64,000 nucleotides of DNA from Alphaproteobacteria bacterium (GTDB taxonomy: Bacteria > Pseudomonadota > Alphaproteobacteria > UBA7985), in contig OZ245893.1 in the NCBI GenBank assembly GCA_965229645.1, forward strand, positions 2,335,572 through 2,399,571, given 5' to 3'. This document shows, piece after piece, positions 1,645 to 58,095 of the stretch. Numbering within the stretch: the stretch's first letter is position 1; every line of letters begins with the position of its first letter. The translations under genes and the position numbers were made by a program. The notes beneath the pieces are model-generated. The model saw only the letters and a list, made by a program, of their open reading frames with translations. It ran no database searches and was not told the origin of the DNA.

Positions 1645-1841
1645 ATACCAGCGGCGGTTGAAAATGACTCAAATGATCGCTGGTATAAGGGCCGCGACTG
1701 CGGCCCCCGTAGCGGCCCCGAGAATAGCGGACACGCGCCTCGGGGTATAAGCGAAGGCCCCGTCGGAGGCGAAACGCGAAGCGTTTCTGCCGTGAGACAC
1801 AAAACGGCGAAAAAAGTGTCAACTTTTTTCGCCGTTGGTAT
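1645..1841 (+). mobile_element. MITE copy 1 (short, ~197 bp form), IS630-like termini ATACCAGCGGCG...CGCCGTTGGTAT
   Basis: Near-identical to copies at 18494, 40367 and 45650. Internal palindromes GGCCGCGACTGCGGCC, GAAACGCGAAGCGTTTC and a 15-bp terminal stem AACGGCGAAAAAAGT/ACTTTTTTCGCCGTT. Confidence 0.85.
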
Positions 1842-1849
1842 GAGAGGCT

Positions 1850-2632
1850 TCACCCCTCAGCGCCGAGCGCAGCAAGGTCGGCTTCCAGGGCCGCGAGATC
1901 GCAAGGACCGAGGAGGTCCAGCAAGGCGAGGGCCTGGTCTCGACACGCGGACCAAGCACCTTGGTCGGGGAACAGAAAATCTGGCAAGGCGGGGCGCTTG
2001 AGGATCAGGCGGCGCCATTCGTGGACGATCAGGGTGCGGATCAGGGCGCGCTCGCTTAAGGTGAGGTCGCTGGAGGCGTCCGCCAGCAAAGATCGGATCC
2101 TTTGCAAGCGGGCCAGCAGCGCCGTGGCTTGACGGGTCAAGTCCTGCGGGCACACCTTGTCCATGAGCCAAGCGGGCAGGCTTTGCGACGGATGCAGGGG
2201 CAGGGCCAAAGTGTCAGCACCCTGCGGGGGGGAGGCACCGAGGCTCATGTGCGCGGTAAGGGGGTATGTGCTTTCGGTTGCACCCGCAGGATGGACGATT
2301 AACCAGGCTTCAGGGGCCTGGTTGGTGGCGGCGTAAATTCGGCCGCTAGCCTCGGCGGCTTGCTGACGTCCTGCGGGCGAGAGGGCGTAGAAACTGCGGC
2401 GCCCCTCTTTGCGTCGCAGCAACCAGCCGTCTTTGCACAAGCGATGGATCGCGACCCGTTGCGACCCGCGCTTGGCCCCGACGCCTTCGCATAGGTGGGC
2501 GAGGGCGCGGCTGCTGACCCACTGCCCTTCTGCCTGCGCCAGGTCACCGAAGATGGTGATCAGATAGGACCAGAGTCGAAGGCTGGTGCCGTCGGTCAGG
2601 GTTGCAAGGGCCTGGGAGGCTCGGCAAGGCAT
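1850..2632 (-). CDS. paaX: Phenylacetic acid degradation operon negative regulator PaaX
   Basis: 260 aa, PaaX-family winged-helix regulator; lies next to paaZ. Confidence 0.75.
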   Translation of the reverse strand: MPCRASQALATLTDGTSLRLWSYLITIFGDLAQAEGQWVSSRALAHLCEGVGAKRGSQRVAIHRLCKDGWLLRRKEGRRSFYALSPAGRQQAAEASGRIYAATNQAPEAWLIVHPAGATESTYPLTAHMSLGASPPQGADTLALPLHPSQSLPAWLMDKVCPQDLTRQATALLARLQRIRSLLADASSDLTLSERALIRTLIVHEWRRLILKRPALPDFLFPDQGAWSACRDQALALLDLLGPCDLAALEADLAALGAEG

Positions 2633-2661
2633 GGTACCTTGTCTAGCCCGCCGCCGCCTCC

Positions 2662-4695
2662 TTAGCCATAGGCATTCATGGTTAGCAGTTCATACTCCGC
2701 CACGGGGTCCTGATCTTGGTTGAGGAGTCGCACGTGCCAGCGTACTTCGCCGTAAGTCTCGTTGCGCGGGGTCTTTTGCTTGACGCTCAAGTGCACGCAG
2801 ATGCTGTCGCCAGGTTCGACGGGCTTTAGAAAGCGCAAGCGATCCAGACCCGTATTGGCCAGGACGGGGCCCTCTGCGGGCTCAACAAATAGGCCGGCGG
2901 CAAAGCTAAGCAGCAAATACCCGTGGGCGACCCGCCCTGGGAAGAATGGATTCCGCTCTGCGGCATCGGCGTCCATGTGGGCATAGAACCGATCCCCCGT
3001 GAAATCGGCGAAGTGTTCGATGTCGTCCAGGGTGACAAGTCGCGTGGGGGAGATCAGAGTCTCACCGATTTTGAGGTCGTGGAAATTCCGTGTGAAGGGG
3101 TGCGCGGGTCCTGCGGGCGCGGGGGCCCCTGGTACCCACTTCTGCCCAATGGCGCTCAGGACTTGGGGGCTGCCCTGAACGGCCGTGCGTTGCATAAAGT
3201 GTTTGACGCCGCGCACGCCGCCCATTTCCTCCCCCCCGCCCGCGCGCCCTGGGCCGCCGTGGATCATGTGCGGCAAGGGCGCGCCGTGCCCCGTGGATTC
3301 GGCCATGGATGTGCGGTCGTTGAAGTATAGTCGTCCGTGGTAGGCGGCGCTGGCGGCGCAGACCTCTTGGGCCACCTGGGGGTCGTGGGTGATGATGGAG
3401 GCGACGAGGGACCCCTGGCCCTTGTTCAGGAGCTGGGTTGCTTGGCCCAAATCCTCATAACCCATGAGGGTGGCGACGGGGCCGAAGGCTTCGATTTGGT
3501 GCACCCGCGTGGCGGTCATGGGATCGTCGCAGTAAAAGACCAGCGGTGCCATGAAGGCACCGCCCTGGGCCTCGGGGCCCTCGGGAACCAAGCCCGCAAA
3601 GCTGCCGATCACCAGGTCGGCCTCGGTAGCCAGGGCCTTGGATTTGGCCAGCACATCGGCCCGCTGGGCCGTCGAGACCAGCGCGCCCATGTCGATGCCC
3701 TCAAGGCGCGGGTCGCCGATGCGGGTTTGCGCCAGGGTCGCGGCTAGGGCCTCAATGACCGCTGGGACGTGCGCCTCGGGAACCAAGATGCGCCGGATCG
3801 CGGTGCACTTCTGCCCCGATTTGGCGGTCAATTCGCGCCGAACTTCACGGATGAAGAGATCAAACTCGGGCGTTCTGGGGCCTGCATCGGGGCCGAGGAC
3901 GCTGGCGTTCAGGCTGTCTTGTTCGGCCAGAAATCGGACGGCGTTCTCCGCAATAGCAGGGGTAGCGCGCAGTTTTAGCGCGGTTTCCGCCGACCCGGTA
4001 AAACTGACCACGTCTTGGCAGGTCAGATGGTCGAGCAGATCGCCCGCGCTGCCCGCAATCAACTGCAAGGCGCCTGCGGGTAAGATCTGGCTCTCGATCA
4101 AGATTTTGACCGCCAGTTCGGTGATGTAGGACGTGGCGGTGGCCGGTTTGACCAGCGCGGGAACCCCCGCCAATAAGGTCGGCGCGAGCTTTTCCAGCAT
4201 GCCCCAAACGGGAAAGTTGAAGGCATTGATATGGACCGCGACCCCATGCAGGGGCATGCAGATGTGTTGGCCCTTGAAGGTACCGTTGCGCGAGAGTTCC
4301 TCCACGTCGCCGTCCAAATAGACCCGCGCGTCGGGCATTTCCCGACGCCCTTTGGACGCGAAGACGAACAGGGTCCCGATGCCGCCGTCGATGTCGATCA
4401 AGTGGTCTTTTTGCGTCGCTCCGCTCATGAACGAGAGATCATAGAGCGCTTGCTTGTGCTGCCCGAGGTGCAGCGCCAAAGCCTTGAGCATGCGCGCCCG
4501 GTCGTGGAAGGTGAGCTTGCGCAAGGCGGGGCCGCCGACCTTACGACCATAGTCGAGCGCCGCCGCCATATCCAAGTTGGCGTGGCCCGCCAGCCCCAAG
4601 GGCGCGCCCGTAACGGCGTTTTCGATTTGGCGCGCGCTGGCGTCGGGCGCGATCCACTCACCCTGCAAGTAGGATTTGACCTCAAGAAGTGCCAT
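2662..4695 (-). CDS. paaZ: Bifunctional PaaZ: N-terminal aldehyde dehydrogenase fused to C-terminal MaoC-like hydratase
   Basis: 677 aa; ALDH fold followed by a C-terminal (R)-hydratase hot-dog domain; paa gene context. Confidence 0.85.
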   Translation of the reverse strand: MALLEVKSYLQGEWIAPDASARQIENAVTGAPLGLAGHANLDMAAALDYGRKVGGPALRKLTFHDRARMLKALALHLGQHKQALYDLSFMSGATQKDHLIDIDGGIGTLFVFASKGRREMPDARVYLDGDVEELSRNGTFKGQHICMPLHGVAVHINAFNFPVWGMLEKLAPTLLAGVPALVKPATATSYITELAVKILIESQILPAGALQLIAGSAGDLLDHLTCQDVVSFTGSAETALKLRATPAIAENAVRFLAEQDSLNASVLGPDAGPRTPEFDLFIREVRRELTAKSGQKCTAIRRILVPEAHVPAVIEALAATLAQTRIGDPRLEGIDMGALVSTAQRADVLAKSKALATEADLVIGSFAGLVPEGPEAQGGAFMAPLVFYCDDPMTATRVHQIEAFGPVATLMGYEDLGQATQLLNKGQGSLVASIITHDPQVAQEVCAASAAYHGRLYFNDRTSMAESTGHGAPLPHMIHGGPGRAGGGEEMGGVRGVKHFMQRTAVQGSPQVLSAIGQKWVPGAPAPAGPAHPFTRNFHDLKIGETLISPTRLVTLDDIEHFADFTGDRFYAHMDADAAERNPFFPGRVAHGYLLLSFAAGLFVEPAEGPVLANTGLDRLRFLKPVEPGDSICVHLSVKQKTPRNETYGEVRWHVRLLNQDQDPVAEYELLTMNAYG

Positions 4696-4752
4696 GGTGA
4701 CCTCCGATCGCTTCGCGGATCGTCGCGATGCCCAGGGCCGCCGCAGTGTGTA

Positions 4753-5015
4753 ATACCAGCAGCGAATGAGAATGACTCATATGATCGCTGGTATAAGGGC
4801 CGCGACTGCGGCCCCCGTAGCGGGCTCCAAGCCCGAAGGGCGCAGGGAACGCCCGCGCTCCAAACGCGCGGCCCCGAGAATAGCGGACACGCGCCTCGGA
4901 GTATAAGCGAAGGCTCCGTCCCGCGGTCGGGCTGAGCGAGCGTAGCGAGCGAGTAGAGACCGCAACCCAAAATAGCCGAAACGCGAAGCGTTTCTGCCGC
5001 GAGACACAAAACGGC
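4753..5015 (+). mobile_element. MITE copy 2 (long form with internal modules A and B, 3' end truncated)
   Basis: Starts TAATACCAGCAGCG. Carries the extra blocks GGGCTCCAAGCCCGAAGGGCGCAGGGAACGCCC and GGTCGGGCTGAGCGAGCGTAGCGAGCGAGTAGAGACCGCAACCC. Sits in the paaZ/paaG divergent promoter region. Confidence 0.8.
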
Positions 5016-5099
5016 CCGCCATGCTGGCGCAGAAATCCATCCCCTTGGACGGGATTGGTGGAACTCATGACAGGCCTCCGTCAAACTGCCGCTAAGCCA

Positions 5100-5114
5100 A
5101 GACCTATTGACCGA
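5100..5114. promoter_or_regulatory. 15-mer GACCTATTGACCGAC upstream of paaG; identical copy at 8384-8398
   Basis: Exact 15-bp match at two paa-linked intergenic sites. Candidate operator or promoter element. Confidence 0.3.
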
Positions 5115-5218
5115 CGTGGCGGGATTTGCAATAATAAACTGAATGATCGGTTAATTAAATGATCGCTTCAGGAGAAACCCAGTGTTTCTTTTGGTTTGAT
5201 CCAAACCTCGGGGGTAGC

Positions 5219-6004
5219 GTGTCGGAGACAATTCAGGTGGCGGATCAGGGCAGCTGGGCGCAGATTAGGCTCAATCGACCCCAGGCGCTCAACAGTTTTA
5301 TCCCCGAAATGCATGAGGCTTTGCGCGCAGCCCTCGACCAGGCGCGGCGCGACGGCAAGCGGGCGCTGGTGCTGACGGGCGCAGGGCGCGGCTTTTGCGC
5401 GGGCCAGGACTTGGGCGACCGCGACCCTGCCCAACGGCAAGGCCCTCCCGATTTGGGCCAGACCGTTCGGGAATTTTACGCCCCGCTCGTTCGGCAGATC
5501 CGCGCGCTGCCCTTCCCCGTCATATGCGCCGTCAACGGCGTTGCGGCGGGGGCAGGGGCCAGTTTGGCCCTGGCCTGCGATTTGGTCGTGGCGGCCAAAT
5601 CGGCCAAGTTCATCCAGTCGTTCGCCAAAGTGGGCCTCATTCCCGATACGGGCGGGTCGTGGCACCTGCCGCGCTTGCTGGGCGAGGCGCGCGCCAAGGG
5701 TCTTGCCCTGCTCGGCGATCCCATCAGCGCCGACCAAGCCGCCGAGTGGGGGCTGATCTGGGCCGCCGTGCCCGATGAGGCGCTTGAGGACCAGGCGCAC
5801 GCTTTCGCCGATCGTCTGGCGCAGGGCCCGACCCTAGGGTTGGGCCTGACGAAGCAGGCGATCCACGCCGCCTCGGCCCAATCCCTGGACGCGCAACTGG
5901 AGATGGAGGCCGACCTGATGCGTACCTGCGGGCGCAGCCAAGACTATGCCGAAGGCGTCGCCGCCTTCCTCGCCAAGCGCCCGCCCCAGTTCAAAGGGTG
6001 CTGA
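5219..6004 (+). CDS. paaG: 1,2-epoxyphenylacetyl-CoA isomerase PaaG (crotonase fold); GTG start assumed
   Basis: Strong resemblance to E. coli PaaG: LTGAGRGFCAGQDL, PVICAVNGVAAGAGA, SFLAKRPPQF. The listed ORF starts at 5159; 5219 (VSETIQV...) aligns better. Confidence 0.8.
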   Translation: MSETIQVADQGSWAQIRLNRPQALNSFIPEMHEALRAALDQARRDGKRALVLTGAGRGFCAGQDLGDRDPAQRQGPPDLGQTVREFYAPLVRQIRALPFPVICAVNGVAAGAGASLALACDLVVAAKSAKFIQSFAKVGLIPDTGGSWHLPRLLGEARAKGLALLGDPISADQAAEWGLIWAAVPDEALEDQAHAFADRLAQGPTLGLGLTKQAIHAASAQSLDAQLEMEADLMRTCGRSQDYAEGVAAFLAKRPPQFKGC

Positions 6005-6005
6005 G

Positions 6006-6452
6006 GTGTCGAACCTGTCCCGCGCGCAAAAATCCGCCGAGGCCATGTGGGCCAAGGATGCCTTTTCGAAGGATTTGGGCCTCACCCTCATCGATGTGGC
6101 AGAGGGCGCGGCCAAAGTCTCGCTGCAGATCGAGGCGCGTCACTGCAACGGCCACGGCATAGCCCATGGTGCCGTGCTGTTTGCCTTGGCCGACAGCGCC
6201 AGTGCCTTGGCGAGCAACGCGCGCAATCGGGTCGCGGTGTCGCAGCACAATTTCATCACCTATATAGCGCCAGCGCGGCTGGGCGATCATTTGATCGCGC
6301 ACGCGCGCGAAGTGTCGTTGAGCGGGCGCAACAGCTTGTGCGATGTGACGGTTTGTGACCAGAACACGAATAAGTTGGCAGAATTTCGCGGTATGATCCG
6401 CGTCACCTCAACCCCCCTATACGATGAGCCCTCAAACGGAGACCCTAAGTGA
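6006..6452 (+). CDS. paaI: Phenylacetyl-CoA thioesterase PaaI (hot-dog fold)
   Basis: HGGAVLFALADSA motif typical of PaaI. GTG at 6006 lies just after the paaG stop. Confidence 0.75.
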   Translation: MSNLSRAQKSAEAMWAKDAFSKDLGLTLIDVAEGAAKVSLQIEARHCNGHGIAHGAVLFALADSASALASNARNRVAVSQHNFITYIAPARLGDHLIAHAREVSLSGRNSLCDVTVCDQNTNKLAEFRGMIRVTSTPLYDEPSNGDPK

Positions 6453-7747
6453 AAGACCTGACACCTGACCCCAAAACCTTAGAACCGATTGAAACCGCTT
6501 CGCTCGATGAAATTCAGGCCTTGCAGCTTGAGCGACTAAAAACGTCGCTGGCTCATGCCTATAGCAACGTACCGCTCTATCGGCGGCGCTTTGACGAGCG
6601 GGGCTTACACCCCGGCGACCTGAAGGACTTGGCCGACCTGGCCAACTTCCCTTTTACGGTCAAGGACGATCTGCGCGAGGCCTATCCCTTCGGCCTGTTC
6701 GCCGTGCCCGAATCGCGCATCATCCGCCTCCATGCCTCCTCGGGCACCACGGGCAAGCCGACAGTCGTCGGCTACACCAAGGGCGACATCGACCTATGGG
6801 CGACGGTGGTAGCGCGGTCTTTGCGCGCCTCGGGCCTGAAAGCTGGCGACAAGATCCACAACGCTTACGGGTATGGGCTGTTCACGGGCGGCCTGGGTGC
6901 GCACTACGGCATCGAGAAGCTCGGGGCCACGGTCGTGCCCATGGGCGGCGGCCAGACCGAACGGCAAGTCAGTTTGATCACCGACCTTCGGCCCCAGGGC
7001 ATCATGGTGACGCCGTCCTACATGCTCAATATCCTGGAAGCGTTTGAAAACGCGGGCTTGGACCCGCGCGCGTCGTCCCTCGAGGTCGGCGTGTTCGGCG
7101 CCGAACCTTGGACCAACGCCATGCGCGCCGAGGTTGAAAGCGCTTTCGACATGCACGCGGTCGATATTTACGGCCTAAGCGAAATCATCGGCCCTGGGGT
7201 CGCCAACGAATGCGTGGAGACGAAGGACGGCCTGCACATTTGGGAAGATCATTTCTACCCCGAGATCATCGACCCGAAAACGGGCCAAGTCCTCGCCGAC
7301 GGGCAGGAGGGGGAGTTGGTCTTTACCACCTTGACCAAGGAGGGCATGCCGCTGATCCGCTACCGCACGCGCGATCTAACCCGATTGCTGCCAGGGACAG
7401 CGCGCACCTTGCGCCGCATGGAAAAAATCACGGGTCGCAGCGACGACATGCTGATCTTGCGCGGCGTCAATGTCTTCCCAACGCAGATCGAGGAACAGGT
7501 CTTGGCAACACCAGGCCTGGCGCCCTACTTCCAAATCGAACTGACCAAGGCTGGCGCCATGGACGCCATGACCGTCAAGGTCGAAGCCATGCCGAACGCC
7601 CAAGACGCCAGCAAAGCGTTGGCCGCAACCTTAGCTGGGGCCATCAAGGCCACCGTCGGCATCACCACCCAAGTTCATGTCGGCGCCCCAGGGTCGGTCC
7701 CGCGGAGCCAAGGCAAGGCCGTGCGCGTGATCGACAAGCGCGCCTAA
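6449..7747 (+). CDS. paaK: Phenylacetate-CoA ligase PaaK
   Basis: 432 aa, SSGTTGKPTVVGYT adenylation motif; overlaps the paaI stop. Confidence 0.9.
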   Translation: MKDLTPDPKTLEPIETASLDEIQALQLERLKTSLAHAYSNVPLYRRRFDERGLHPGDLKDLADLANFPFTVKDDLREAYPFGLFAVPESRIIRLHASSGTTGKPTVVGYTKGDIDLWATVVARSLRASGLKAGDKIHNAYGYGLFTGGLGAHYGIEKLGATVVPMGGGQTERQVSLITDLRPQGIMVTPSYMLNILEAFENAGLDPRASSLEVGVFGAEPWTNAMRAEVESAFDMHAVDIYGLSEIIGPGVANECVETKDGLHIWEDHFYPEIIDPKTGQVLADGQEGELVFTTLTKEGMPLIRYRTRDLTRLLPGTARTLRRMEKITGRSDDMLILRGVNVFPTQIEEQVLATPGLAPYFQIELTKAGAMDAMTVKVEAMPNAQDASKALAATLAGAIKATVGITTQVHVGAPGSVPRSQGKAVRVIDKRA

Positions 7748-7749
7748 GC

Positions 7750-8382
7750 ATGGCGCGCCCGCTGGCCAAGGATCGAGACCAGAAACGCACCGCGATCCTC
7801 AAGGCCGCCGCCCAAACCTTCGCGCGCGAGGGCATCGCCCGCGCGTCCATGGGGCAAATTGCCGAGGCGTGCGGGATTTCCAAGGCCAACATCTACCACT
7901 ACTACGCCAGCAAGAACGACCTCGTGTTTGACATCCTGGAAACCTACCTTCGCTCCCTGCGCGACCGCGTTTGCGCCCAGCCGCACGCGGGCCAGACGCC
8001 TAAGGACCGCCTGCACAGCTTGATCGAACACACGCTCTTGGCGTACGACGGTATGGACGCGGAACACAAAATCCAAACCGAAGGCTTGGCCCTCCTCCCC
8101 GCCCAACAGCAAGCCCAATTGCGCGCCTACCAGCGCGACCTCGTCGCCGCCTTCTCGGCCACCTTATGCGACCTGGAGCCGCAAGTGTTCGCCCAAAACC
8201 CCCAAAAACTCCGCGCCACCACCATGTCCATCTTTGGGATGCTCAACTGGTTCTACATGTGGAACACCCACCGCCATGTGGATAGCCGCAAGGCCTATGC
8301 CAGGTTGGTCTTGCAGCTTGCAGTCGGGGGGGTGCGGGACTTAGGGACGGTGGCGTATGAGGCCAACGGAATGAACCGCTGA
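7750..8382 (+). CDS. TetR/AcrR-family transcriptional regulator (PaaR-like)
   Basis: Starts MARPLAKDRDQKRTAILKAAAQTFAREGIARASMGQIAEACGISKANIYHYY, a TetR helix-turn-helix. The upstream part of listed ORF 7210..8382 overlaps paaK and is discounted. Confidence 0.8.
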   Translation: MARPLAKDRDQKRTAILKAAAQTFAREGIARASMGQIAEACGISKANIYHYYASKNDLVFDILETYLRSLRDRVCAQPHAGQTPKDRLHSLIEHTLLAYDGMDAEHKIQTEGLALLPAQQQAQLRAYQRDLVAAFSATLCDLEPQVFAQNPQKLRATTMSIFGMLNWFYMWNTHRHVDSRKAYARLVLQLAVGGVRDLGTVAYEANGMNR

Positions 8383-8518
8383 CCTATTGACCGACCCGCG
8401 TCACGGGTCGGCAGCGGGAAGTCCAGACGGCATGAACCTTGTGCTGTACCAAACGACGCCCGAGAGGCACGCCTCCAAGGGGAGAGGCGGACAAAGAGGT
8501 CATTTAATTCTTCCGCTG

Positions 8519-8714
8519 ATACCAACGGCCAAAAAAGTTGACACTTTTTTGGCCGTTTTGTGTCTCACGGCAGAAACGCTTCGCGTTTCGCCTCCGACGG
8601 GCCTTCGCTTATACCCCGAGGCGCTTTCGCGCTGATCTCGGGGCCGCTGCAGGGGCCGCAGTCGCGGCCCTTATACCAGCGAACATAAGAGTCGTTCTCA
8701 ACTGCCGCTGGTAT
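8519..8714 (-). mobile_element. MITE copy 3 (short form, inverted orientation)
   Basis: ATACCAACGGCCAAAAAAGTTGACACTTTTTTGGCCGTT...CCGCTGGTAT; lies in the azlC upstream region. Confidence 0.85.
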
Positions 8715-8787
8715 GATATGACCTGGAGTCCGCTGCAGAACGAACAAAAACCCCATTCGGTTTTGTCCCTGACACGGCTAAGGGCGC

Positions 8788-9519
8788 TTGATGAGAACGC
8801 AGTTGATTTTGGGATTTTGGGTTGCCTTGCCCGTGTCCCTCGCCGTTGGGGTCTATGGTTTGGTCATGGGGGTCGGCGCGGCGGCGCAGGGGCTTACCTG
8901 GGGGGAGTTGCTGGTCAAGTCGTTTACGGTCTTTGCAGGCGCGTCGCAGTTTGTCGTGGTCGAAGGCTGGGGCAGCCCGATTTGGGTGCTGTTGCTGGCA
9001 ACGGCGGCCGTCAACTTGCGTTACCTGATGGTGGGTTTGACCTTGCGGGGCGTTTTGGACGCAGCGCCCTGGCCGCTGCGGCTGACAGCGCTTTGGTATT
9101 CGGCGGACGAGAACTGGGCCTTGACCCTTGCGCGGCGCGAGCGCGAGCCTGCCATTGGCGCGGCCTTCTTGCTTGGGTCTGGGCTGGCGGTGCTGCTGTT
9201 CTGGCAGTTGGGCGGGCAAGTTGGCCTGGCGGTGGGCGGGAATTTGCCCGACCCTAGACAAACCATCGAACGCTGGGGGCTCGACTTTACCTTTGCCGCC
9301 ATATTTTTGGCGCTCATCCTTTCCTTCGTCAAACGACGGTGGGACTGGCTGCCCGTCGCGGCCGCGGCCGCAGGGGCCATCGTGTTCGCCGAGGTCTTGC
9401 CCGCGCATTCGGACACCCACAGCCTCTCCATCATTGGCGGCGCGCTCATCGGGTGCGGCGTTGCCGCGCTCACTTACCGTCCCGACTTTGATACCCCTTC
9501 CGCGCAGGAACCCCGCTAG
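8788..9519 (+). CDS. azlC: AzlC-family branched-chain amino acid exporter subunit
   Basis: 243 aa polytopic membrane protein with AzlC-like sequence. Confidence 0.75.
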   Translation: MMRTQLILGFWVALPVSLAVGVYGLVMGVGAAAQGLTWGELLVKSFTVFAGASQFVVVEGWGSPIWVLLLATAAVNLRYLMVGLTLRGVLDAAPWPLRLTALWYSADENWALTLARREREPAIGAAFLLGSGLAVLLFWQLGGQVGLAVGGNLPDPRQTIERWGLDFTFAAIFLALILSFVKRRWDWLPVAAAAAGAIVFAEVLPAHSDTHSLSIIGGALIGCGVAALTYRPDFDTPSAQEPR

Positions 9520-9824
9520 TGTCGTCGTACGCCGCCTGGCTGATCTTTGGCATGGCCGCCATCACTTGGGGTTTTCGTTTGGGCGGGTACCTCATGGGCG
9601 GCTTGCTGCCGCGCACGGGTCGCTTGGCCTACGTCTTGGACCGCCTGCCCGCGTTCGTTTTGATCTCCCTCGTGGCGCCGACGGTTTGGAACTTGGGGTG
9701 GATTGGCGCCGTCGCGAGCGCGCTGGTCGTCCTGGTGACCCGCGCAACGGGCCGCACCTTGCTCGCGATGATCCTCGGCACTGGCGTTTTGGCACTGGCG
9801 CGTCTTATCATTGGTTCAACTTAA
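9519..9824 (+). CDS. azlD: AzlD-family branched-chain amino acid transport protein
   Basis: 101 aa, 3-4 transmembrane helices, directly follows azlC with a GTG start. Confidence 0.7.
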   Translation: MSSYAAWLIFGMAAITWGFRLGGYLMGGLLPRTGRLAYVLDRLPAFVLISLVAPTVWNLGWIGAVASALVVLVTRATGRTLLAMILGTGVLALARLIIGST

Positions 9825-9890
9825 CAGGATTTCTCTGTGTCTCCTCGACGTATCCCTAAAGTCAAGCCAAAGGGAATTGAGAATGACCCT

Positions 9891-10021
9891 TATACCAGCG
9901 GCGGCAGCTTTTGACTCGTAAATGCGTGGAGGCCTGAAATTTTTCGCCAATGATAAACTGCGTATCACGTCAATCACACAAAGAAATTGAATACGCGTCA
10001 ATTGATCCCGCCGCTGGTATA
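9891..10021. repeat. Short element bounded by perfect 14-bp inverted repeats TATACCAGCGGCGG/CCGCCGCTGGTATA (MITE termini) with an unrelated ~100-bp interior
   Basis: Termini match the MITE/IS630 ends. Flanking GAATTGAGAATGACCCTT resembles the MITE sub-terminal region. Confidence 0.55.
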
Positions 10022-10045
10022 AACCGCTTCAATTGCGGTCCGTTT

Positions 10046-11122
10046 TCACGCCCGAAAAATCGGCCAAAACAGCGCATGGGCCTGGGGTCCGCGAAAACCT
10101 TGGCGCGACACGCGCAGCTTGAAATGGTCGAGCCACCGCCGTTGATGGTAAAGATTGGCGTTGGATCGGGCCCAGGCTTGCAGCCGCGTCGCGCGGGGTT
10201 TGCGGCGGCGCTCGTAGGCGCGCAAATTGGGCGCGGTTTCGGCCAAGGCCCAGGCATCTTCGATGGCGAGCGCCGCGCCTTGGGCCAGGAAGGGCAGGGT
10301 CGGATGCGCCGCATCACCCAACAAGGCCACCTGACCCGCGACCCAGCGCGTTAGCGGCGGACGATCAAACAGCGCCCACCGCCGCACCTCGGTCGCTGCC
10401 GCCAGCACGCCCTGGACGGTCGGGTGCCAGCGCGCGAACCGACCGCGCAGTTCGGCGAGATCCCCTGGCAAATTCCAGCCTTCTTCGTGCCAGCCGTGCT
10501 GCTCGGTCACGCCCACGAAGTTCAGCGTCTCTGGCCCCAAATAGTAGGTCACTAGGTGCTGACCGGGCCCGACCCACGCGCAGGCGTCGGCGGGGATCTG
10601 TGTCTTCAAGTCTGCAGTCACCGTGACCGTTCCGCGCCAAGCCACCTGCCCAGTAAAGCGCGGCCGTTCGGGGCCGTTCATTTGGGTTTGCAGGGTCGAG
10701 TGCAGGCCATCGGCCGCGACGGTGAACTGGTCCGGCGCGTAGGCCTCGACCCGATGGCCCAACCGCACCGTCACCCCTTCGGCCAACAAGGCGTGGAGGG
10801 TCGGTCGGGCGATGTGCAAATAGGGCGCGCCGTAGAGCCGTCGGCACCAGCCCTTGAGCGGTGCGCGCATCAGGACCGTGCCCCTTTGCCCGTCGCGCAA
10901 GGTTGCGGCCTCGGGTTCGACGGCGGCGGCTTCAACTCTGGCGAGGAGGCCCAGACGGTCCAAGATGCGCGTGGCATTGGGGCTTAACTGGATCCCCGCC
11001 CCGAGGTGTTCGAAAGCGGGGGCTTGTTCATAGACTTGGGGCGCCCAGCCCGCCTGCGCTAAGGCATGGGCCGCGGTCAGCCCACCGATTCCCGCGCCGA
11101 CGATGATTGCACGCTTGCCCAT
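10046..11122 (-). CDS. FAD-dependent monooxygenase (UbiH/salicylate hydroxylase family)
   Basis: N-terminal GxGxxG: KRAIIVGAGIGGLTAAHALAQAG; C-terminal GDAAH motif. Confidence 0.8.
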   Translation of the reverse strand: MGKRAIIVGAGIGGLTAAHALAQAGWAPQVYEQAPAFEHLGAGIQLSPNATRILDRLGLLARVEAAAVEPEAATLRDGQRGTVLMRAPLKGWCRRLYGAPYLHIARPTLHALLAEGVTVRLGHRVEAYAPDQFTVAADGLHSTLQTQMNGPERPRFTGQVAWRGTVTVTADLKTQIPADACAWVGPGQHLVTYYLGPETLNFVGVTEQHGWHEEGWNLPGDLAELRGRFARWHPTVQGVLAAATEVRRWALFDRPPLTRWVAGQVALLGDAAHPTLPFLAQGAALAIEDAWALAETAPNLRAYERRRKPRATRLQAWARSNANLYHQRRWLDHFKLRVSRQGFRGPQAHALFWPIFRA

Positions 11123-11155
11123 GGTCCCCGCTTAGGCCTAGGGACCAGTCCTGTC

Positions 11156-12076
11156 ATGGCGAAAAAATCCAAAGGCCTTCCTCTCCACGGTTGGATCAAC
11201 CTGGACAAGCCCCTGCACCTAAGTTCCAGTGACGCGGTCCAAGCCGTCAAGGGGCATCTGCGACCTCGAAAAATTGGCCACGGCGGCACGCTCGACCCCT
11301 TGGCCACGGGCATTCTCCCCTTGGCCGTGGGCGAGGCGACCAAGACCGTCAGCTACGCCATGGACGGGCGCAAGACCTACGTCGCCCACGTTCAATTTGG
11401 CCAGGCGACCCTTACCGACGATGGCGAAGGCGAGGTTGTGGCAAGGTCGGACTTTCGTCCTGAATCGATCTTGATCCAAAAGGCCTTGCACGAGATGGCG
11501 GGGCGGGTACTCGATCAGCGCCCGCCTGCCTTTTCGGCCCTGAAGGTCCAGGGCCAGCGGGCCTACGATCTGGCCAGAACGGGGCAGGCTGTCGATTTGG
11601 CCCCGCGCCCGGTTTGGCTAGAGTCCGCTCGCTTGCTGTCCTACGACGGGCAGGTCGCGGTGCTAGAACTAGAGGTCGGCAAAGGGTTTTACGTCCGCTC
11701 GTTCGCTCGCGACCTGGGCGAACGGTTAAGAACGCGCGCGCACTTGGCGCAATTGAGGCGCACGGCTGTTGGGTCTTTTGCGTTGGACACGGCGATTTCG
11801 CTTGATTCTTTCCTGTCCTTAGACCATCGCGACGCGGTCGCAGCTCTGCTGCCGCTCGAACGTGTGCTGGACGACATCCCGGCCCTCGATCTTGGTCAGG
11901 CAGAGGCGTGGCGCCTCAAGTCTGGGTTGCCTACTGCCCTGGTCCGCCGATCCCTGCTGCCACAAATGGCAGGCTTGATTGACGGCCAGACGGTGCGCGC
12001 CCGGGTTGACAAGCGGTTGCTGGCCTTGTGCGAATTTAACAAGGCGCGGCTGAAGGTCATTCGAGGCTTCAATTAA
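11156..12076 (+). CDS. truB: tRNA pseudouridine(55) synthase TruB
   Basis: GWINLDKP...[11 protein letters not shown] catalytic-Asp motif; start MAKKSKGLP at 11156. Confidence 0.85.
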
Positions 12077-12110
12077 CGGGATCCCCCCAGCGAACCAAAG
12101 GACTGTTCCG

Positions 12111-12380
12111 ATGTCGGTTATGACCCTAAGCAAGCAGGAGATTGTGCAAAAATTCGGCCGCACCGCCGACGACACAGGCTCCCCCGAGGTGCAAATTGCC
12201 CTCCTCACCCATCGCATTTTGAACCTGACCGAGCATATGAAGGAGCATAAGCATGACTTCCACTCGCGTCGGGGCCTCATCATGATGGTCGGCCAGCGGC
12301 GTCGCTTGCTCGACTACCTGAAAAAGAAGGATGCGGCCCGTTACGCCGCCATCTTGGAACCGCTGGGTCTGCGGAAATAG
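12111..12380 (+). CDS. rpsO: 30S ribosomal protein S15
   Basis: 89 aa, canonical S15 sequence. Confidence 0.95.
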
Positions 12381-12391
12381 ACCATCGCAAA

Positions 12392-12430
12392 AAGGGCGCT
12401 GTCAAGAGGGGGCGCCCTTTCCTCTTTTTG
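12392..12430 (+). terminator. Intrinsic terminator/attenuator hairpin after rpsO (AAGGGCGC-loop-GCGCCCTT followed by T-run)
   Basis: 8-bp GC-rich stem with 12-nt loop followed by TCCTCTTTTTGG. Lies in the rpsO-pnp leader, where such a hairpin is expected. Confidence 0.6.
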
Positions 12431-12610
12431 GCGTTTCACATGTCGTGGACCGCGCAAATTCACTAGAAAGGAAGCTCCGCTCGACCCCTTCGTGTCGAAC
12501 TTAGCCTTTCTCTGATGCATGACACAGGGACGGGCCGATGCAAACGGAACCCAGACAATGAGGGTTTGGTTGATCACCGCGCAAGGCAGAAGAACGGAAC
12601 AAATCAACTT

Positions 12611-14734
12611 ATGTTCAATATCGTACGCAAATCTATGGAATGGGGTGGCAGGACGCTCACCCTCGAAACTGGCCGTGTGGCCCGTCAGGCCGACGGCGCG
12701 GTCCTGGTCACTTATGGGGACACGGTGGTGCTTTGCACCGCCGTCGGGGCGGCCAAGCCCAAACCAGGACAAGACTTCTTTCCCCTAACCGTCAACTACC
12801 AAGAAAAATACTCCGCCTCTGGCCGCATTCCAGGCGGATTTTTTAAGCGCGAAGGGCGCCCGACGGAGCGCGAAACGCTGTTGTCGCGCCTCATTGATCG
12901 GCCCCTACGTCCCCTGTTTGCCGAGGGATACTTGTGCGAAACCCAGGTTGTCTGCACCGTCTTGTCCTACGATCTGGAGAACGACCCCGACATGCCTGCC
13001 ATGGTCGGCGCCTCGGCGGCCCTCACCTTGTCGGGTTTGCCCTTCATGGGGCCCATCGGCGGCGCGTCGGTTGGCTACCGCGATGGGGGCTATGTCCTCA
13101 ACCCCAAAGTTAAGGATCGCGGCGGCATGCTGCTCGACTTGTCGGTGGCGGGCACCAACGAAGGCGTGCTGATGGTCGAATCCGAAGCCTCGGAATTGTC
13201 CGAGGAGATCATGCTCGGCGCTGTCAAGTTCGGCCACGAGGCCTGCAAACAGGCCATCGACCTGATCATCGACCTGGCCGAGGACGCGGCCAAGGACCCC
13301 CGCGACATTCCCGAACCTGGCTACGACGCGCAGGCGTTGAAGGAAAAAATCGTCGCCTTGGTCGGCGCAGAGATCGAGGCGGGCTACAGCCTCAAAGAAA
13401 AAGACGCCCGCCGCAATGCCCTTGCTGCCGCCAAAGATCGGGCCCTTGAGGCCTTTGCCAGCGACGAAGCGGGTGAGTACGACGAAGCCGCGGTCGCCAA
13501 GGGTTTCAAGTCTGCCGAAGCCGATGTGCTGCGCGGCGCCGTTCTCAAAACGGGCCAGCGGATCGACGGACGCGACACCAAAACCGTTCGTCCCATCGTT
13601 TCGGAAGTTTCGGTTTTGCCGCGCACTCACGGCTCGGCCCTCTTTACCCGCGGGGAAACCCAGGCGCTTGTCACCTGCACGCTCGGGACGGGACGCGATG
13701 AGCAAATGATCGACAGTCTGGACGGTGAGTACAAATCGCGCTTCATGCTGCACTACAACTTCCCGCCCTATTCGGTTGGGGAAGCTGGGCGCATGGGCTC
13801 CCCAGGGCGCCGCGAAATCGGCCATGGCAAACTGGCGTGGCGGGCGATCAACCCGCTCATGCCCAATCAAGAGGAATTTCCTTACGTGGTGCGGCTGATC
13901 TCCGAGATCACGGAGTCCAACGGCTCCTCCTCCATGGCCACAGTGTGCGGATCGTCCCTGGCGCTCATGGACGCGGGCGCGCCGCTGAAAAAACCCGTTG
14001 CAGGCATCGCCATGGGCCTCATCAAGGAAGGGGACGACTTCGCGGTCTTGTCCGATATCTTGGGCGATGAGGATCACTTGGGCGACATGGATTTCAAGGT
14101 CGCTGGGTCTGCCGACGGCATTACGGCCCTGCAGATGGACATCAAAATCACGTCGATCACGCCAGAAATTATGGAAATCGCCCTCGCTCAGGCCAAGGAT
14201 GGTCGCATTCATATCTTGGGCGAAATGGACAAGGCGCTGGGTGCGGCGCGGGAAGGCACCTCCTCGCACGCGCCCCAAATCGTGACGATCCAGATCCATA
14301 AGGACAAGATCCGCGACGTCATCGGTTCGGGCGGCAAGGTGATTCGCGAAATCACCGAAACGACGGGGGCAACCATCGATATCGAGGAAGACGGCACCAT
14401 CAATATCGCCGCCTCGGACGCGAGCAAAATCGAGGCTGCTAAGACCTGGATTCAAGATATAACGGACGAGGCGGAAGTCGGCAAAATTTATCGAGGAAAG
14501 GTCGTCAACACCAAGGATTTTGGCGCCTTTGTCAACTTCATGAAGGGCAAGGACGGATTGGTCCATATTTCCAATATGAAGTACGAGCGCGTCGCCAAGA
14601 CCACCGACGTGGTTAGGGAAGGCGACGAAGTCTATGTCGTGTGCCTCAGCATCGACGATCGCGGCAAAGTCTCCCTGTCCATGAAAGACGTGAACCAAGA
14701 AACGGGCGAACGCCTCAAAAAAGGCGCCGCTTAA
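12611..14734 (+). CDS. pnp: Polynucleotide phosphorylase
   Basis: Start [16 protein letters not shown]; two RNase PH domains plus KH and S1 domains. Confidence 0.95.
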
Positions 14735-14744
14735 GCGGCGAGGC

Positions 14745-17305: not shown

Positions 17306-17309
17306 CCTC

Positions 17310-18479: not shown

Positions 18480-18493
18480 GGCGGCTGTTGTAA

Positions 18494-19912: not shown

Positions 19913-19939
19913 GCCGTTGGTATAATACCAACGGAAAAA

Positions 19940-20482: not shown

Positions 20483-20490
20483 AATATCCC

Positions 20491-43460: not shown

Positions 43461-43467
43461 CCCTCTC

Positions 43468-45672: not shown

Positions 45673-45846
45673 CTCTTTTGATCGCTGGTATAAGGGCCGC
45701 GACTGCGGCCCCCGTAGCGGCCCCGAGACAAGCTAAGAAAGCGCCTCGGGGTATAAGCGAAGGCCCCGTCGGAGGCGAAACGCGAAGCGTTTCTGCCGTG
45801 AGACATAAAACGGCCAAAAAAGTGTCAACTTTTTTGGCCGTTGGTT
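45650..45846 (+). mobile_element. MITE copy 10 (short form)
   Basis: ATACCAGCGGCGATTGCAACTGACTC...GGCCGTTGGTTT. Confidence 0.85.
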
Positions 45847-53065: not shown

Positions 53066-53066
53066 G

Positions 53067-55207: not shown

Positions 55208-56406
55208 TCGCATCGTTTTTGGGCAAGCGTGCCTTCGCCGCCATCCTCCGCAGTCTTGAGGGCCGCATCGACCAGGGCGCGCTCACTTTCATTTTGCCCG
55301 ACGGCGAGCAACACGTCGTGGCGGGGCCAAATCCTGGTCCCCAGGCGCAACTCCAGATTCATACCTACGGCTTTATGCGCCGCATTCTGCGGTTTGGGTC
55401 GCTGGGGTTTGCCGAGGCCTACATGGCCGAGGAGTGTAGCAGCCCCGATATGCGCGCGGTGATGGATTTTGCCGTCGCCAACGCCAAGTGGTTCGACTCC
55501 GACGCGTTCATGAGCCGCGGCCTCGCCAACCTCATCACCCGCTGGCGGCACAGCCGCCGCGACAATAGCCGCGTCGGGTCGCGCAAGAATATCGCTTACC
55601 ACTACGACCTGGGCAATGACTTCTATGCCCTTTGGCTGGATCCGTCCATGACGTACTCCAGTGCTGTTTTTGCCGACGGGGTCAATTCCTTGGAGGTCGC
55701 GCAGCGGGAAAAGTACGACCGCCTGGCCCAGCTCGTCGATCTCAAGCCAGGGGCGCGGGTCTTAGAGATTGGGTGCGGCTGGGGCGGCTTTGCCGAATTT
55801 GCCGCCAGGGAGTACGGCGCGGAGGTGACGGGCCTGACCATCAGTCAGGAACAGCTCGAGTACGCCAAGGCGCGGATTGCGCGCGCGGGCCTGACCGCTA
55901 AGGTCGATCTGCAGTTTTGCGACTACCGCGAACATGCGGGGAAAAACTACGACGCTCTGGTCTCGATTGAAATGTTCGAGGCGGTGGGCGAGCGGCACTG
56001 GCGAACCTTTTTTGATCGGGTTCAGGCCTTGTTGCGCCCAGGCGGCAAGGCGGGCCTGCAGGTCATTACCATCGCAGAGCCGTTTTTCCACGCCTACCGC
56101 GCCAGCCCAGACTTTATCCAGAAGTACATTTTCCCAGGGGGCATGTTGCCAACGCCCGAGCATTTGGACGCCTTAGCGGGGCAGGTGAACCTGACGCGCG
56201 AGACTTCGACGGGGTACGGGACCCACTACGCCCGCACCCTCGACACCTGGCTCGCCAACTTCCGCCAGCACTGGGACCAGATTAGCGCCATGGGATTCGA
56301 TGAACGGTTTCGGCGCATGTGGGAGTACTATCTGCACTATTGCTCTGCAGGGTTCACCGACGGTCGCTTGGACGTAAAGCAGATCGGTCTGCGCAAGGGT
56401 GCCTAA
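55204..56406 (+). CDS. cfa: Cyclopropane-fatty-acyl-phospholipid synthase family SAM-dependent methyltransferase
   Basis: VLEIGCGWGG SAM motif; HYDLGNDFY. Confidence 0.85.
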   Translation: MIASFLGKRAFAAILRSLEGRIDQGALTFILPDGEQHVVAGPNPGPQAQLQIHTYGFMRRILRFGSLGFAEAYMAEECSSPDMRAVMDFAVANAKWFDSDAFMSRGLANLITRWRHSRRDNSRVGSRKNIAYHYDLGNDFYALWLDPSMTYSSAVFADGVNSLEVAQREKYDRLAQLVDLKPGARVLEIGCGWGGFAEFAAREYGAEVTGLTISQEQLEYAKARIARAGLTAKVDLQFCDYREHAGKNYDALVSIEMFEAVGERHWRTFFDRVQALLRPGGKAGLQVITIAEPFFHAYRASPDFIQKYIFPGGMLPTPEHLDALAGQVNLTRETSTGYGTHYARTLDTWLANFRQHWDQISAMGFDERFRRMWEYYLHYCSAGFTDGRLDVKQIGLRKGA

Positions 56407-56773
56407 GGCCAGCGGCAACTGAGGATGACTCTTATGTTCGCTGGTATAAGGGCTGCGACTGCGGTCCCCCAAAGCGGGCTCCAAGCCTGAAGGGCGCAGG
56501 GAACGCCCGTAATCCAAACGCGCGGCCCCGAGAATCGCGGACACGCGCCTCGGGGTATAAGCCAAGGCCCCGTCCAGCGGTCGGGCTGAGCGAGCTTAGC
56601 GAGCGAGTAGAGACCGCAACTAAAAGGTCGGGCTGAGCGAGCTTAGCGAGCGAGTAGAGACCGCAACTAAAAGGTCGGGCTGAGCGAGCTTAGCGAGCGA
56701 GGTGAGACCGCAACCCATAAAGCCGAAACGCGAAGCGTTTCTGCCGCGAGACACCAAACGGACATAAAAAAGG
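56407..56773 (+). mobile_element. MITE copy 11 (long form; module B expanded to 3 tandem 47-bp units)
   Basis: GGCCAGCGGCAACTGAGGATGACTCTTATGTTCGCTGGTATAAGG...; no clear 3' terminal repeat. Confidence 0.75.
56579..56719 (+). repeat. Tandem repeat 3 x 47 bp (GGTCGGGCTGAGCGAGCTTAGCGAGCGAGTAGAGACCGCAACTAAAA)
   Basis: Units at 56579, 56626, 56673; the third unit diverges at its 3' end. Confidence 0.85.
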
Positions 56774-56794
56774 CGTCGTTGATAACCGTTTGTG

Positions 56795-57874
56795 TTAGGT
56801 ATTCAACCAGTACCTGGTGCCTTTTCGTTCTCCTGTCTTACGAAGTGCGCCCTTATCCACCAAGTCATTAAGATCCCGAGTCGTGGTAGGTGTAGAGGCG
56901 CCAGTAATGGCCCTATAGTTCTTCGCGCTCAAGCCCCCGATGAAGCCTGCAGGTCCCGCGTCGAACATACGGATAAGCGCGCGCTCTTGCCTTTTGTTGA
57001 GTTGACCACGCAGACTATCGAGCATTTGTGTCTTGATGATGATGTGATCAATGAGTTGAAGGGAGTACTCTTGAGCCGAGAGAGCGGTTTCTGCAAACCA
57101 AACAAGCCAAGACTGGATATCCATACGTTTGTTATGGTGTTCCAGTTCACGATAGTAGGATTTTCGTTCTTTCTCAATCTGTCGGGACAAGGCAAGAAGG
57201 CTTGGTTGACCAAGCGCCCGCGATATGCAATGTTCAGAGATAGCACGCGCGATACGGCCATTTCCATCCTCAAAGGGGTGAATGGAAACAAAGTACAGGT
57301 GCGCGATCCCCGACAAAGTGAGAATTGGCAATCGAGCATTTTCGAGCCAACTCAGGAAGGTGTCCATTTCTTCTGGAACCTGAATTGAGGGAGGAGCCTC
57401 AAAGTGGATCTGTGGCTTGTCGATGGGACCAGATACCACTTGCATAGCTTCCTCATGCGTTCGATACCCACCAATAACATCCATATTTCGTTGTGTACGG
57501 CAGACCATGTCATGCCAAGCAAAGAGGTCTTGGTGTGTGAGGGGCTGATCAAACCCTTTGAACACGCTGACCATGAGTTCAGCAATTCCCTGCTCCGCAG
57601 CGCCGGATTTTTTCAGGGGGGTAAGGCCGAATTCTCGACGTATTGAGGACTGGACAGAAGTGCGGTTCAAAAACTCACCCTCAATTTGCGAGGTTTTCAT
57701 CGCCTCGTCGCTCAGAAGGTCAACTTTCAGCGCGTCTTGGTCTCGCGGATTAAGATGTTGCCATGCGCCGAGCAGGCGCCCAGCACCAAGAAGGAAGCGT
57801 TGCTCCAGCTCACTAAGGGCCTTGCTGTCGTAACGCCAATGTCGCCAATCGGGCTGTTGCCAATTCCAGGTCAT
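56795..57874 (-). CDS. fic: Fic-family protein (class II, internal inhibitory motif), C-terminal winged-helix region
   Basis: Active-site HPFEDGNGRIAR (HxFx[DE]GNGRxxR); N-terminal TSQIEG matches the (S/T)xxxE(G/N) inhibitory motif. GC is about 52-55%. Confidence 0.85.
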   Translation of the reverse strand: MTWNWQQPDWRHWRYDSKALSELEQRFLLGAGRLLGAWQHLNPRDQDALKVDLLSDEAMKTSQIEGEFLNRTSVQSSIRREFGLTPLKKSGAAEQGIAELMVSVFKGFDQPLTHQDLFAWHDMVCRTQRNMDVIGGYRTHEEAMQVVSGPIDKPQIHFEAPPSIQVPEEMDTFLSWLENARLPILTLSGIAHLYFVSIHPFEDGNGRIARAISEHCISRALGQPSLLALSRQIEKERKSYYRELEHHNKRMDIQSWLVWFAETALSAQEYSLQLIDHIIIKTQMLDSLRGQLNKRQERALIRMFDAGPAGFIGGLSAKNYRAITGASTPTTTRDLNDLVDKGALRKTGERKGTRYWLNT

Positions 57875-57947
57875 GAGGAATAAGGGTGAGATTTATTCCT
57901 CACAAAATACCCATATTGTGAGGAATATCAAGGATATTTATTCCTCA
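57874..57947. promoter_or_regulatory. Two tandem palindromic operators TGAGGAATA-N11/12-TATTCCTCA overlapping/upstream of the fic start
   Basis: 9-mers at 57874-82, 57894-902, 57918-26, 57939-47. The first overlaps the fic initiation codon. Confidence 0.5.
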
Positions 57948-57978
57948 CTATCACTTTTGGCGACTGTGACCAAAAGCG

Positions 57979-58095
57979 TTGGGCTGAGCGAGCCTAGCGC
58001 GCAAGGTACGACCGCAACCCCCAAAACCCGAAACGCGAAGCGTTTCTGCCGCGAGACACAATGGCCAAAGAAGTGTCCACTGCTAGGGCCGTTTG
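57979..58095 (+). repeat. MITE fragment (module B plus degenerate 3' part), copy 12
   Basis: GGGCTGAGCGAGCCTAGCGCGCAAGGTACGACCGCAACCC...GAAACGCGAAGCGTTTCTGCCGCGAGACAC. Confidence 0.6.

Follow-up and report, generated by a model that had tools for sequence, protein, structure and literature searches.

In this study, we analysed a 64-kb stretch of an alphaproteobacterial genome (contig OZ245893.1, positions 2,335,572 to 2,399,571; hereafter, the window) that holds numerous copies of a short, hairpin-rich repeat, a miniature inverted-repeat transposable element (MITE), together with an insertion sequence (IS) of the IS630 family. The repeat family is genuine and far above chance, as its terminal 12-mer ATACCAGCGGCG occurs 10 times in the window with at most one mismatch, compared with 0.4 expected, and an arm of its terminal hairpin, AACGGCGAAAAAAGT, occurs 15 times with at most two mismatches, compared with 0.14 expected. 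Copies were delimited by repeat finding, blastn and an nhmmer profile followed by a check of coordinates, and the resulting census comprises 10 MITE copies (195-391 bp), two fragments and one element (127 bp) of a second family, which together occupy 2723 bp, or 4.25% of the window. An initial annotation of this DNA had counted at least 11 copies and two fragments; the fragments were recovered, whereas the copies number 10. Eight copies are on the plus strand and two on the minus strand, so that both orientations occur as that annotation had reported, and their density, about one per 5-6 kb, is high and within the range reported for Correia, REP or ERIC elements. The MITEs, the fragments, the 127-bp element and the IS630-family element (open reading frame, ORF; target-site duplication, TSD) are as follows.

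1646-1840, plus strand: MITE, short form, 195 bp; TSD TGA/TGA; convergent genes on either side.
4754 to ~5020, plus strand: MITE with modules A and B; left flank TAA, right terminal hairpin gone; divergent genes on either side.
8520-8713, minus strand: MITE, short form, 194 bp; TSD TCA/TCA in the orientation of the element.
9893-10019, plus strand: element of the second family, 127 bp; TACCAGCGG-N11-GACTC ... CCGCTGGTA; flanks TTA/TAA.
17311-17603, plus strand: MITE with modules A and B; final 6 nt absent; 9-bp direct repeat at the flanks.
18494-18688, with its final 10 nt at 19913-19922, plus strand: MITE, short form, split by an IS4-family element.
19926-21097, minus strand: IS630-family element, 1172 bp; flanks TAA and TTA; Pfam and NCBIfam matches.
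21003-20491 and 20482-19940, minus strand: OrfA (helix-turn-helix ORF) and OrfB (DDE_3 ORF) of that element.
21117-21165, plus strand: solo fragment like module A (80% identical), outside any MITE and 19 bp off the IS630 end.
33269-33512, plus strand: MITE with module A only, 244 bp; mutated termini TCCC and GGTT; flanks TAA/TTA; convergent genes.
40368-40562, plus strand: MITE, short form, 195 bp; TSD TAA/TAA; divergent genes on either side.
43469-43713, minus strand: MITE with module B only, 245 bp; TSD TCA/TCA read on the plus strand.
45651-45846, plus strand: MITE, short form, 196 bp; flanks TTA/TAA, right end mutated.
56407 to ~56797, plus strand: MITE with module A and three tandem 47-bp B units; termini degenerate at both ends; convergent genes.
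57969-58100, plus strand: MITE fragment, 5'-truncated; a remnant of module B, then the right part.

The left end of the MITE, which derives from the transposase-proximal end of the IS, reads TACCAGCGG-N11-GACTC and is closed by an inverted copy, CGCTGGTA, into hairpin 1, of 40 bp. At the right, TACCAACGG-N10/11-TGAC likewise forms a palindrome and is of the type found at the distal end of the IS. Between the two ends are interchangeable hairpin cassettes, namely GGGCCGCGACTGCGGCCC, a 7/8-bp stem with a loop of ~17 nt, the hairpin GAAACGC-GAA-GCGTTTC, and the optional modules A and B, the former an insertion of 48 bp and the latter 57 nt in place of 6 nt. The consensus folds into five hairpins with 49 pairs. 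The short-form consensus and the hairpins given in the initial annotation are correct, and so is its assignment of modules, both being present in the copies at 4754, 17311 and 56407, A only at 33269 and B only at 43469. In the wider set that includes related genomes, copies are 182-517 bp in length (mostly 188-292 bp), non-coding and filled by stems and loops.

The exact boundaries of the MITE were read from 74 left ends listed from the window and a related genome, in which a T stands two bases ahead of ATACC with a variable base between, a T-N pattern that is mirrored in the right flanks. The true ends are TACC...GGTA, with a T-N-A triplet outside each, and the left terminus TACCAGCGG(C) and the right terminus TACCAACGG(C) (reverse complement) are nearly invariant across 28-44 copies. 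Under a strict definition of a full copy, the TNA triplets on the two sides agree in 16 of 28, including instances of TCA/TCA, TGA/TGA and TTA/TTA, and under looser definitions they agree in 27 of 44, for which the shuffle mean was 13.2 and none of 100,000 shuffles reached 27. The flank logo around the MITEs is roughly (T)C-TNA-G and, as read from these flanks, MITE insertion duplicates a 3-bp TNA in a loosely palindromic context of approximately CTNAG. The TA duplication outside ATACC/GGTAT that had been proposed in the initial annotation was rejected, since just 2 of 44 copies carry the same 2-mer on both sides. At the copy split by the IS4-family element, the TSD is TAA (18491-18493 and 19923-19925). 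At copy 17311 (region 17303-17612), a 9-bp direct repeat, CTAGCCTCA, is found in place of TNA flanks.

Orthologues of the ABC transporter gene beside copy 43469-43713 were compared for filled and empty sites, and an empty site was identified at locus L084 of a related metagenome-assembled genome (MAG), CBDDHH01. That locus reads GACCCCC-TTA-TCCTTGCC, with a single triplet, whereas the filled site in the window reads GACCCTC-TCA-(245-bp element)-TCA-TTCTCGCC; in this alignment the two form a precise filled/empty pair with a 3-bp duplication. A second candidate for an empty site, at the stop codon of coaE (TGA in the MAG, TTA-(MITE)-TAA in the window), was set aside because the downstream sequence is unalignable and synteny breaks there.

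The IS630-family element in the window has TACCAACGG... as its left inverted repeat (IRL) and TACCAGCGGCAAGAATGAGCGACTC... as its right, transposase-proximal inverted repeat (IRR). Its ORFs have Pfam matches to HTH_32/HTH_33 and DDE_3; OrfB is in the -1 frame relative to OrfA and the two overlap at a run of eight A residues (A8), on which a -1 shift gives a fused protein of 354 amino acids that matches NCBIfam NF033545, 'IS630 family transposase', with 245 bits (cut-off 100). A sequence search of the PDB with the transposase returned a marginal match to Sleeping Beauty and nothing else. Plasmids of Sinorhizobium, Paracoccus, Azospirillum and other Alphaproteobacteria carry relatives of the IS at ~65% DNA identity that are annotated 'IS630 family transposase'. 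MAG CBDDHH01 contains copies with 95-98% identity to the window IS, where they are broken by other elements, and an intact copy that is 99% identical occurs in the same sample as the MAG. The elements that disrupt IS630 copies of the MAG are another MITE of ~118 bp (terminal inverted repeat, TIR, AGACCTCTGCATAA) and an IS of ~1 kb (L003 762-881; L035 5255-5372 and 5502-6502).

A set of autonomous ISs was obtained from relatives fetched via OrfB and two plasmid copies, and all of the fetched relatives have TACCARCGG ends. Identical TAA or TTA flanks lie outside TACC...GGTA in seven of nine autonomous ISs of the clade: TTA/TTA in L075 (the 99% identical IS), L077 and the first IS of L078, and TAA/TAA in the second IS of L078, L079, L080 and L082 (Paracoccus). 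The other two are L081 (Sinorhizobium), with TTA/CCA, and the window IS, with TAA/TTA. Since an extension of the TIR would give TAA/TTA, the flanks of the seven are direct repeats and not part of the TIR. In addition, the TA-duplication model fails for the ISs of L075, L077, L078 (its first IS, L078a), L079, L080 and L082. The IS630/Tc1/mariner group is described as duplicating TA (PMC8533490; PMC2229807), and the known exceptions are Sailor, with TATA (PMC8533490), and ISHsp2, with TTAA (PMC3606827). Therefore, a 3-bp TNA duplication is atypical against the published descriptions, although TA duplication is a typical and not a defining trait of the IS630 family, as published members such as ISHsp2 (TTAA) already deviate from it.

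Comparison of the ends connects the MITE to this IS clade. Over 32 nt without gaps, the left ends of the MITE match the IRR at a mean of 24.1 positions and a maximum of 28, compared with 20.1 in a control in which positions 10-32 were shuffled, whereas the right end shares with the IRL only TACCAACGG and a TGAC ~11 nt further in (20.5 of 32; control 19.0). The motif GACTC at position 21-25 is present in 39 of 44 MITE left ends and nine of 10 IRRs of the clade and in none of nine IRLs; all nine IRLs have GACC at that position, and the MITE right ends have GACA. No part of the hairpin 1 loop in the MITE is more conserved than this GANTC site, the recognition sequence of CcrM. The MITE keeps the end asymmetry of the IS, with two distinct end types conserved across the clade. 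The statement in the initial annotation that the termini of the MITE and the IS630 element match applies to the left end, where the match continues well past 12 bp, and not to the right end beyond TACCAACGG and the spaced TGAC. Its further proposal, that the MITEs are non-autonomous derivatives of the window IS, is upheld as to relationship by the left-end match, the asymmetry and the co-occurrence of the two, and the action of the transposase in trans is a step that we infer. A non-autonomous nature of the MITEs and their relationship to the IS630-family element in the window are supported, and the filled/empty pair shows that they insert.

The 127-bp element at 9893-10019 had been listed as a terminus-only variant of the MITE. 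Its termini are indeed those of the MITE, but it belongs to a separate family with relatives of its own in the MAG. Over 84 bp at the 3' end, it has ~70% similarity to the IRL-proximal part of a related IS, and the 127-bp family is a plain deletion derivative of such an IS. A solo remnant resembling the distal end of IS630 (~8491-8521) adjoins MITE copy 8520-8713 at its right end (reverse complement TATCAGCGGAAGAATTAAATGACC, compared with TACCAACGGAAAAATTAAATGACC in the IS). Both ends of the MITE are themselves near-complete mini-elements, with hairpin 1 being TACC...GGTA followed by TAA, and solo 42-bp versions exist with flanks TTA/TTA, which suggests that the family originated in the capture of a series of hairpins by palindromes of IS ends.

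We consider it probable that the MITEs derive from both ends of an IS630-family IS, with the intact 1172-bp element at 19926-21097 being a member of the same clade. In the mechanism that we propose, a -1 frameshift on the A8 run would produce an OrfAB transposase, which would bind both MITE ends in trans and move the element by cut and paste. Repeated transposition would raise the copy number, and later recombination between copies would change it, giving rise to tandem arrays, swaps of cassettes and breakpoints of rearrangements. Any transcript of the element folds very stably through its hairpins.

The TSD itself prompts one to ask if the MITEs are moved by a different transposase, either of the IS5 family (IS1031/IS427/ISL2-like) or another that duplicates TNA, with the likeness to IS630 ends being secondary. 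TNA duplication is typical of IS5-family groups in the ISfinder groupings, the flank logo of roughly C-TNA-G is in keeping with it, and IS5-like and DDE_Tnp_1 elements occur in the lineage. However, the IS630-clade elements have the same TACC...GGTA ends as the MITE and 3-bp TWA direct repeats in seven of nine cases, the identity of the left end to the IRR is as high as 28/32, and unrelated ends are found on the other ISs seen (AGACCTG... in L035, CACAGTG... in the window). Mobilisation by such an IS5-type or other TNA-duplicating transposase is highly improbable.

The folding of the MITE bears on a further explanation, that the copies are REP/BIME-like palindromes maintained by the host, spread by a RAYT-type tyrosine transposase or by recombination and retained because they stabilise mRNA, terminate transcription or organise the nucleoid, with IS630 merely targeting them. 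The elements are mosaics of interchangeable hairpins; the fold of one copy as RNA has a z of about -5.6 to -5.7 relative to shuffles on either strand; and compensatory double changes affect 16 of the 49 stem pairs. ISs cluster at copy 18494 and, in addition, related mosaic repeats headed by the same GGGCCGCGACTGCGGCCC hairpin occur in Azospirillum and other Alphaproteobacteria. Most of the compensatory changes, however, derive from a few subfamily or whole-cassette replacements and not from many independent events, as exemplified by the swap of GAAACGC-GAA-GCGTTTC for GTGCGCC-AAG-GGCGCAC. Judged by the longest ORFs, copies are found alike in convergent, divergent and tandem gene contexts with no bias to 3' ends. 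A promoter or terminator role was also considered and rejected, since a consensus scan of one copy (40368-40562) detected nothing promoter-like and, within the terminal palindrome, only a pair of weak terminator-like stems, and the gene contexts are mixed. The TIRs and the TSD with its empty site point instead to cut and paste by a DDE-type enzyme, and REPs are not known to make a TSD. We therefore regard host-maintained palindromes as a very unlikely explanation, although a shade less so than an IS5-type mover. The MITE family can be explained without any host-level function and, because the scan was negative or weak and the gene contexts are mixed, none is claimed.

To determine the distribution of the family, 185,579 species genomes were scanned with a 19-mer of hairpin 2. 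Among the matches listed, the family was found in one MAG of the scan, 'Alphaproteobacteria bacterium' CBDDHH01, which accounted for 48 of 74 loci; those 48 loci contain at least ~100 MITE copies or pieces by nhmmer, and the genes shared by the window and this MAG have ~86% DNA identity. A third genome (L085, ~75% identity) has the family with tandem arrays and alternative hairpin cassettes, and the next two relatives (~73%) have no MITE in the 17-22 kb examined of each. Among the matches listed, the family is thus found only in an uncultured alphaproteobacterial lineage comprising the window strain, the MAG and the third genome. The lineage has no close cultured relative, as the nearest genera by PNPase identity, Azospirillum, Niveispirillum and Limibacillus, are at ~70%. 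In L085 (1952-3068 and 12213-12722), three identical 200-bp MITE units are arranged in tandem with the junction GGTA-TTATAA-TACC, and there is also an array with a period of 155 bp, formed between the right end and the GGTATAAGG that follows hairpin 1. Coverage of this contig is low, and the arrays may be an assembly artefact.

The 64 kb gave no match in Rfam at gathering thresholds, with matches at chance level only at E<=10, and the MITE is thus not among the families catalogued there; a match to a catalogued family was a possibility that the initial annotation had raised. One MITE copy compared by blastn with 72,556 plasmids in PLSDB, rhizobial plasmids included, had no match, and a 2024 review of prokaryotic MITEs does not mention IS630. 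By the criteria of Rfam and PLSDB, the elements appear to constitute a MITE family that is new and uncatalogued and of a known kind; its TSD is atypical, and it has a conserved CcrM site.

Outside the lineage, mosaic palindromic repeats headed by the hairpin AAGGGCCGCGACTGCGGCC occur in Azospirillum, Kiloniellales, Parvularculaceae and Novosphingobium (L012, L024, L048, L053, L065, L021/L025/L056/L071 and L041). The mosaics of Azospirillum have TACC...GGTA-type ends and occur at 56 unannotated places in 22 plasmid or chromid records. In beta- and gammaproteobacteria, the AAGGGCCGCGACTGCGGCC hairpin is followed by a T-run, and these have the appearance of ordinary terminators.

Several observations weigh against an origin of the MITEs from, and their movement by, the IS630 clade. 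No transposition has been observed, one clean empty site only was found, and the likeness of the right end to the IRL past 9 bp barely exceeds that of the control. TNA with a CTNAG-like target characterises some IS5-family groups and Harbinger-type elements and is no hallmark of IS630/Tc1/mariner. The compensatory changes hint at some structural constraint, beyond what simple parasitism would need. The flanks of the window IS are mismatched (TAA/TTA), for which a rearrangement junction is the likely explanation: a contig found via PNPase (L088), from a strain 99.6% identical over window positions 4536-19925, stops matching exactly at the IS630 boundary (L088 15370-15400), which places the window IS at such a junction, possibly one formed by recombination between ISs. 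That same contig, over 15.4 kb, has all five of the elements present in the window strain (four copies and the 127-bp element), and there is consequently no evidence of very recent movement.

The five elements common to these two strains are also what would be expected if the MITEs are dead relics that were mobile in an ancestor, with the present copy number the result of inheritance and recombination (tandem duplication and gene conversion). Mutated or truncated ends in several window copies, the divergence of ~8-18% between copies, the disrupted IS copies of the MAG and the tandem arrays of L085 all fit such a history. In contrast, the window and L075 each hold an IS with uninterrupted OrfA and OrfB and the frameshift site, perfect ends and perfect TSDs are kept in many MITE copies, and the occupancy of at least one site differs between the window and the MAG (~86% nucleotide identity). 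On balance, extinction of the family is possible but rather doubtful, and a family mobilised by transposases of the IS630 clade is the reading that we prefer.

Insertion of the MITEs has altered neighbouring genes at two places in the window, and the claim that all copies are intergenic is consequently true of most but not all of them. Copy 43469-43713 lies 9 bp past the stop codon of the ABC transporter gene and within the ancestral 5' end of maf (43701-44300), whose start and first five codons were replaced by the MITE; its ATG at 43701 comes from the MITE end, and the N-terminus is MTAG-IILAS... in the window compared with MSPDP-LILAS... in the MAG. The former overlap of maf with the upstream ABC transporter gene is thereby broken (insertion region 43466-43716). 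The second gene is coaE (45070-45672), which reads into copy 45651: its ancestral TGA stop, kept in the MAG, is gone and eight extra codons are read from the MITE, which lengthens CoaE at its C-terminus. That copy is located at a synteny break relative to the MAG, and the gene order downstream is unlike that of four related genomes (coaE-L35-L20). The orthologous intergenic site upstream of the homocysteine S-methyltransferase gene has a MITE in both genomes in opposite orientation (45651-45846 and L017 6398-6585), by either independent insertion or inversion.

The IS4-family element that splits copy 18494 (18689-19912, plus strand, 1224 bp) encodes a 388-amino-acid transposase (NCBIfam IS4, 213 bits) and has inverted repeats CACAGTGCACGACAGTAG and a 9-bp direct repeat GCCGYTGGT (GCCGCTGGT/GCCGTTGGT). 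It is nested in the right end of that MITE copy and lies outside the MITE system. Window positions 56001-64000 have a G+C content of 0.52-0.57, compared with ~0.62 elsewhere, and include a TRAP-transporter DctM gene; this segment may have been horizontally acquired.

Among known systems, enterobacterial BIME/REP and rhizobial RIME elements resemble the MITE family in being mosaics of palindromic units in intergenic DNA, and they are not known to combine TIRs with a TSD. The MITE family differs from REP/BIME in having both and in that its copies are mostly solitary. An IS5-family or Tourist-like MITE would match in its TNA duplication, but the ends here agree with an IS630-family IS, and not with the IS5-like or IS4-family elements observed.

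As far as it is described in PMC2229807, the closest mechanistic precedent is RUP of the pneumococcus with its IS630-Spn1, which is likewise an abundant small non-coding element whose TIRs resemble an IS630-family IS of the same genome. RUP is often beside or in IS elements, and its movement in trans was inferred (Oggioni and Claverys 1999, as reviewed in PMC2229807). By that description, RUP is set apart by its 107-bp length, one long stem-loop and TA insertion, compared with 195-391 bp, five or more hairpins, optional modules and TNA in the MITE family, which, unlike RUP, also keeps two different IS-type ends. Correia/NEMIS elements of Neisseria are similar in density, TIRs, length variants due to internal blocks of ~50 bp, strongly folded transcripts and occasional ORF fusion; however, they have TIRs of 24-26 bp, a TA duplication and an unknown parent transposase (PMC2229807), whereas the MITE family has an identifiable parent IS and a 3-bp TSD. 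The CIR1-4 repeats of Caulobacter, Brucella and other Alphaproteobacteria, in the summary given in PMC2229807, share intergenic inverted-repeat arms and a highly conserved GANTC in or near the loop of one arm, and the GACTC in the loop of hairpin 1 in 39 of 44 MITE copies is a CIR-like trait. The CIRs have TA termini and a mobility that was left unexplained (Chen and Shapiro 2003, summarised in PMC2229807); compared by description only, they are ~110 bp and described there as without TIRs, which the MITE family possesses. The window IS also resembles ISHsp2 of Halomonas, an IS630-family element with two ORFs and a -1 frameshift on an A-run (PMC3606827). ISHsp2 and Sailor are both IS630/Tc1/mariner-type in their transposases and, like the clade described here, depart from TA (PMC3606827; PMC8533490), but the former duplicates TTAA and the latter TATA, whereas the duplication here is TNA, with TAA or TTA for the ISs and also TCA and TGA for the MITEs.

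A more speculative and, in our estimation, unlikely extension would be that the TACCARCGG-ended IS630 clade and its MITEs form a distinct alphaproteobacterial branch of IS630/Tc1/mariner, with cuts at TNA staggered by 3 nt and transposition gated by the hemimethylation of the fixed GANTC in the transposase-proximal end, and that the CIRs and the GGGCCGCGACTGCGGCCC mosaics of Azospirillum belong to the same MITE superfamily. Dam sites gate the transposition of IS10 and IS50, which provides a model for such gating by hemimethylation after passage of the replication fork.

The MITE family does not overturn current understanding, being an ordinary kind of genomic parasite that is unusual mainly for the TNA duplication of MITE and parent IS clade alike. 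It is, however, one of few high-copy bacterial MITEs that have been tied end by end to an autonomous parent, and it documents the side effects that such elements can have: the start codon of maf has been replaced, CoaE has become longer, and copies lie at rearrangement breakpoints. Duplication of TNA by an IS630 clade that is common in Alphaproteobacteria, including on plasmids of Paracoccus and Sinorhizobium, affects how such ISs and MITEs are to be delimited and annotated. Potentially of wider relevance is the fixed GANTC site, which suggests a link of CcrM methylation to transposition and a possible origin of the CIR repeats.

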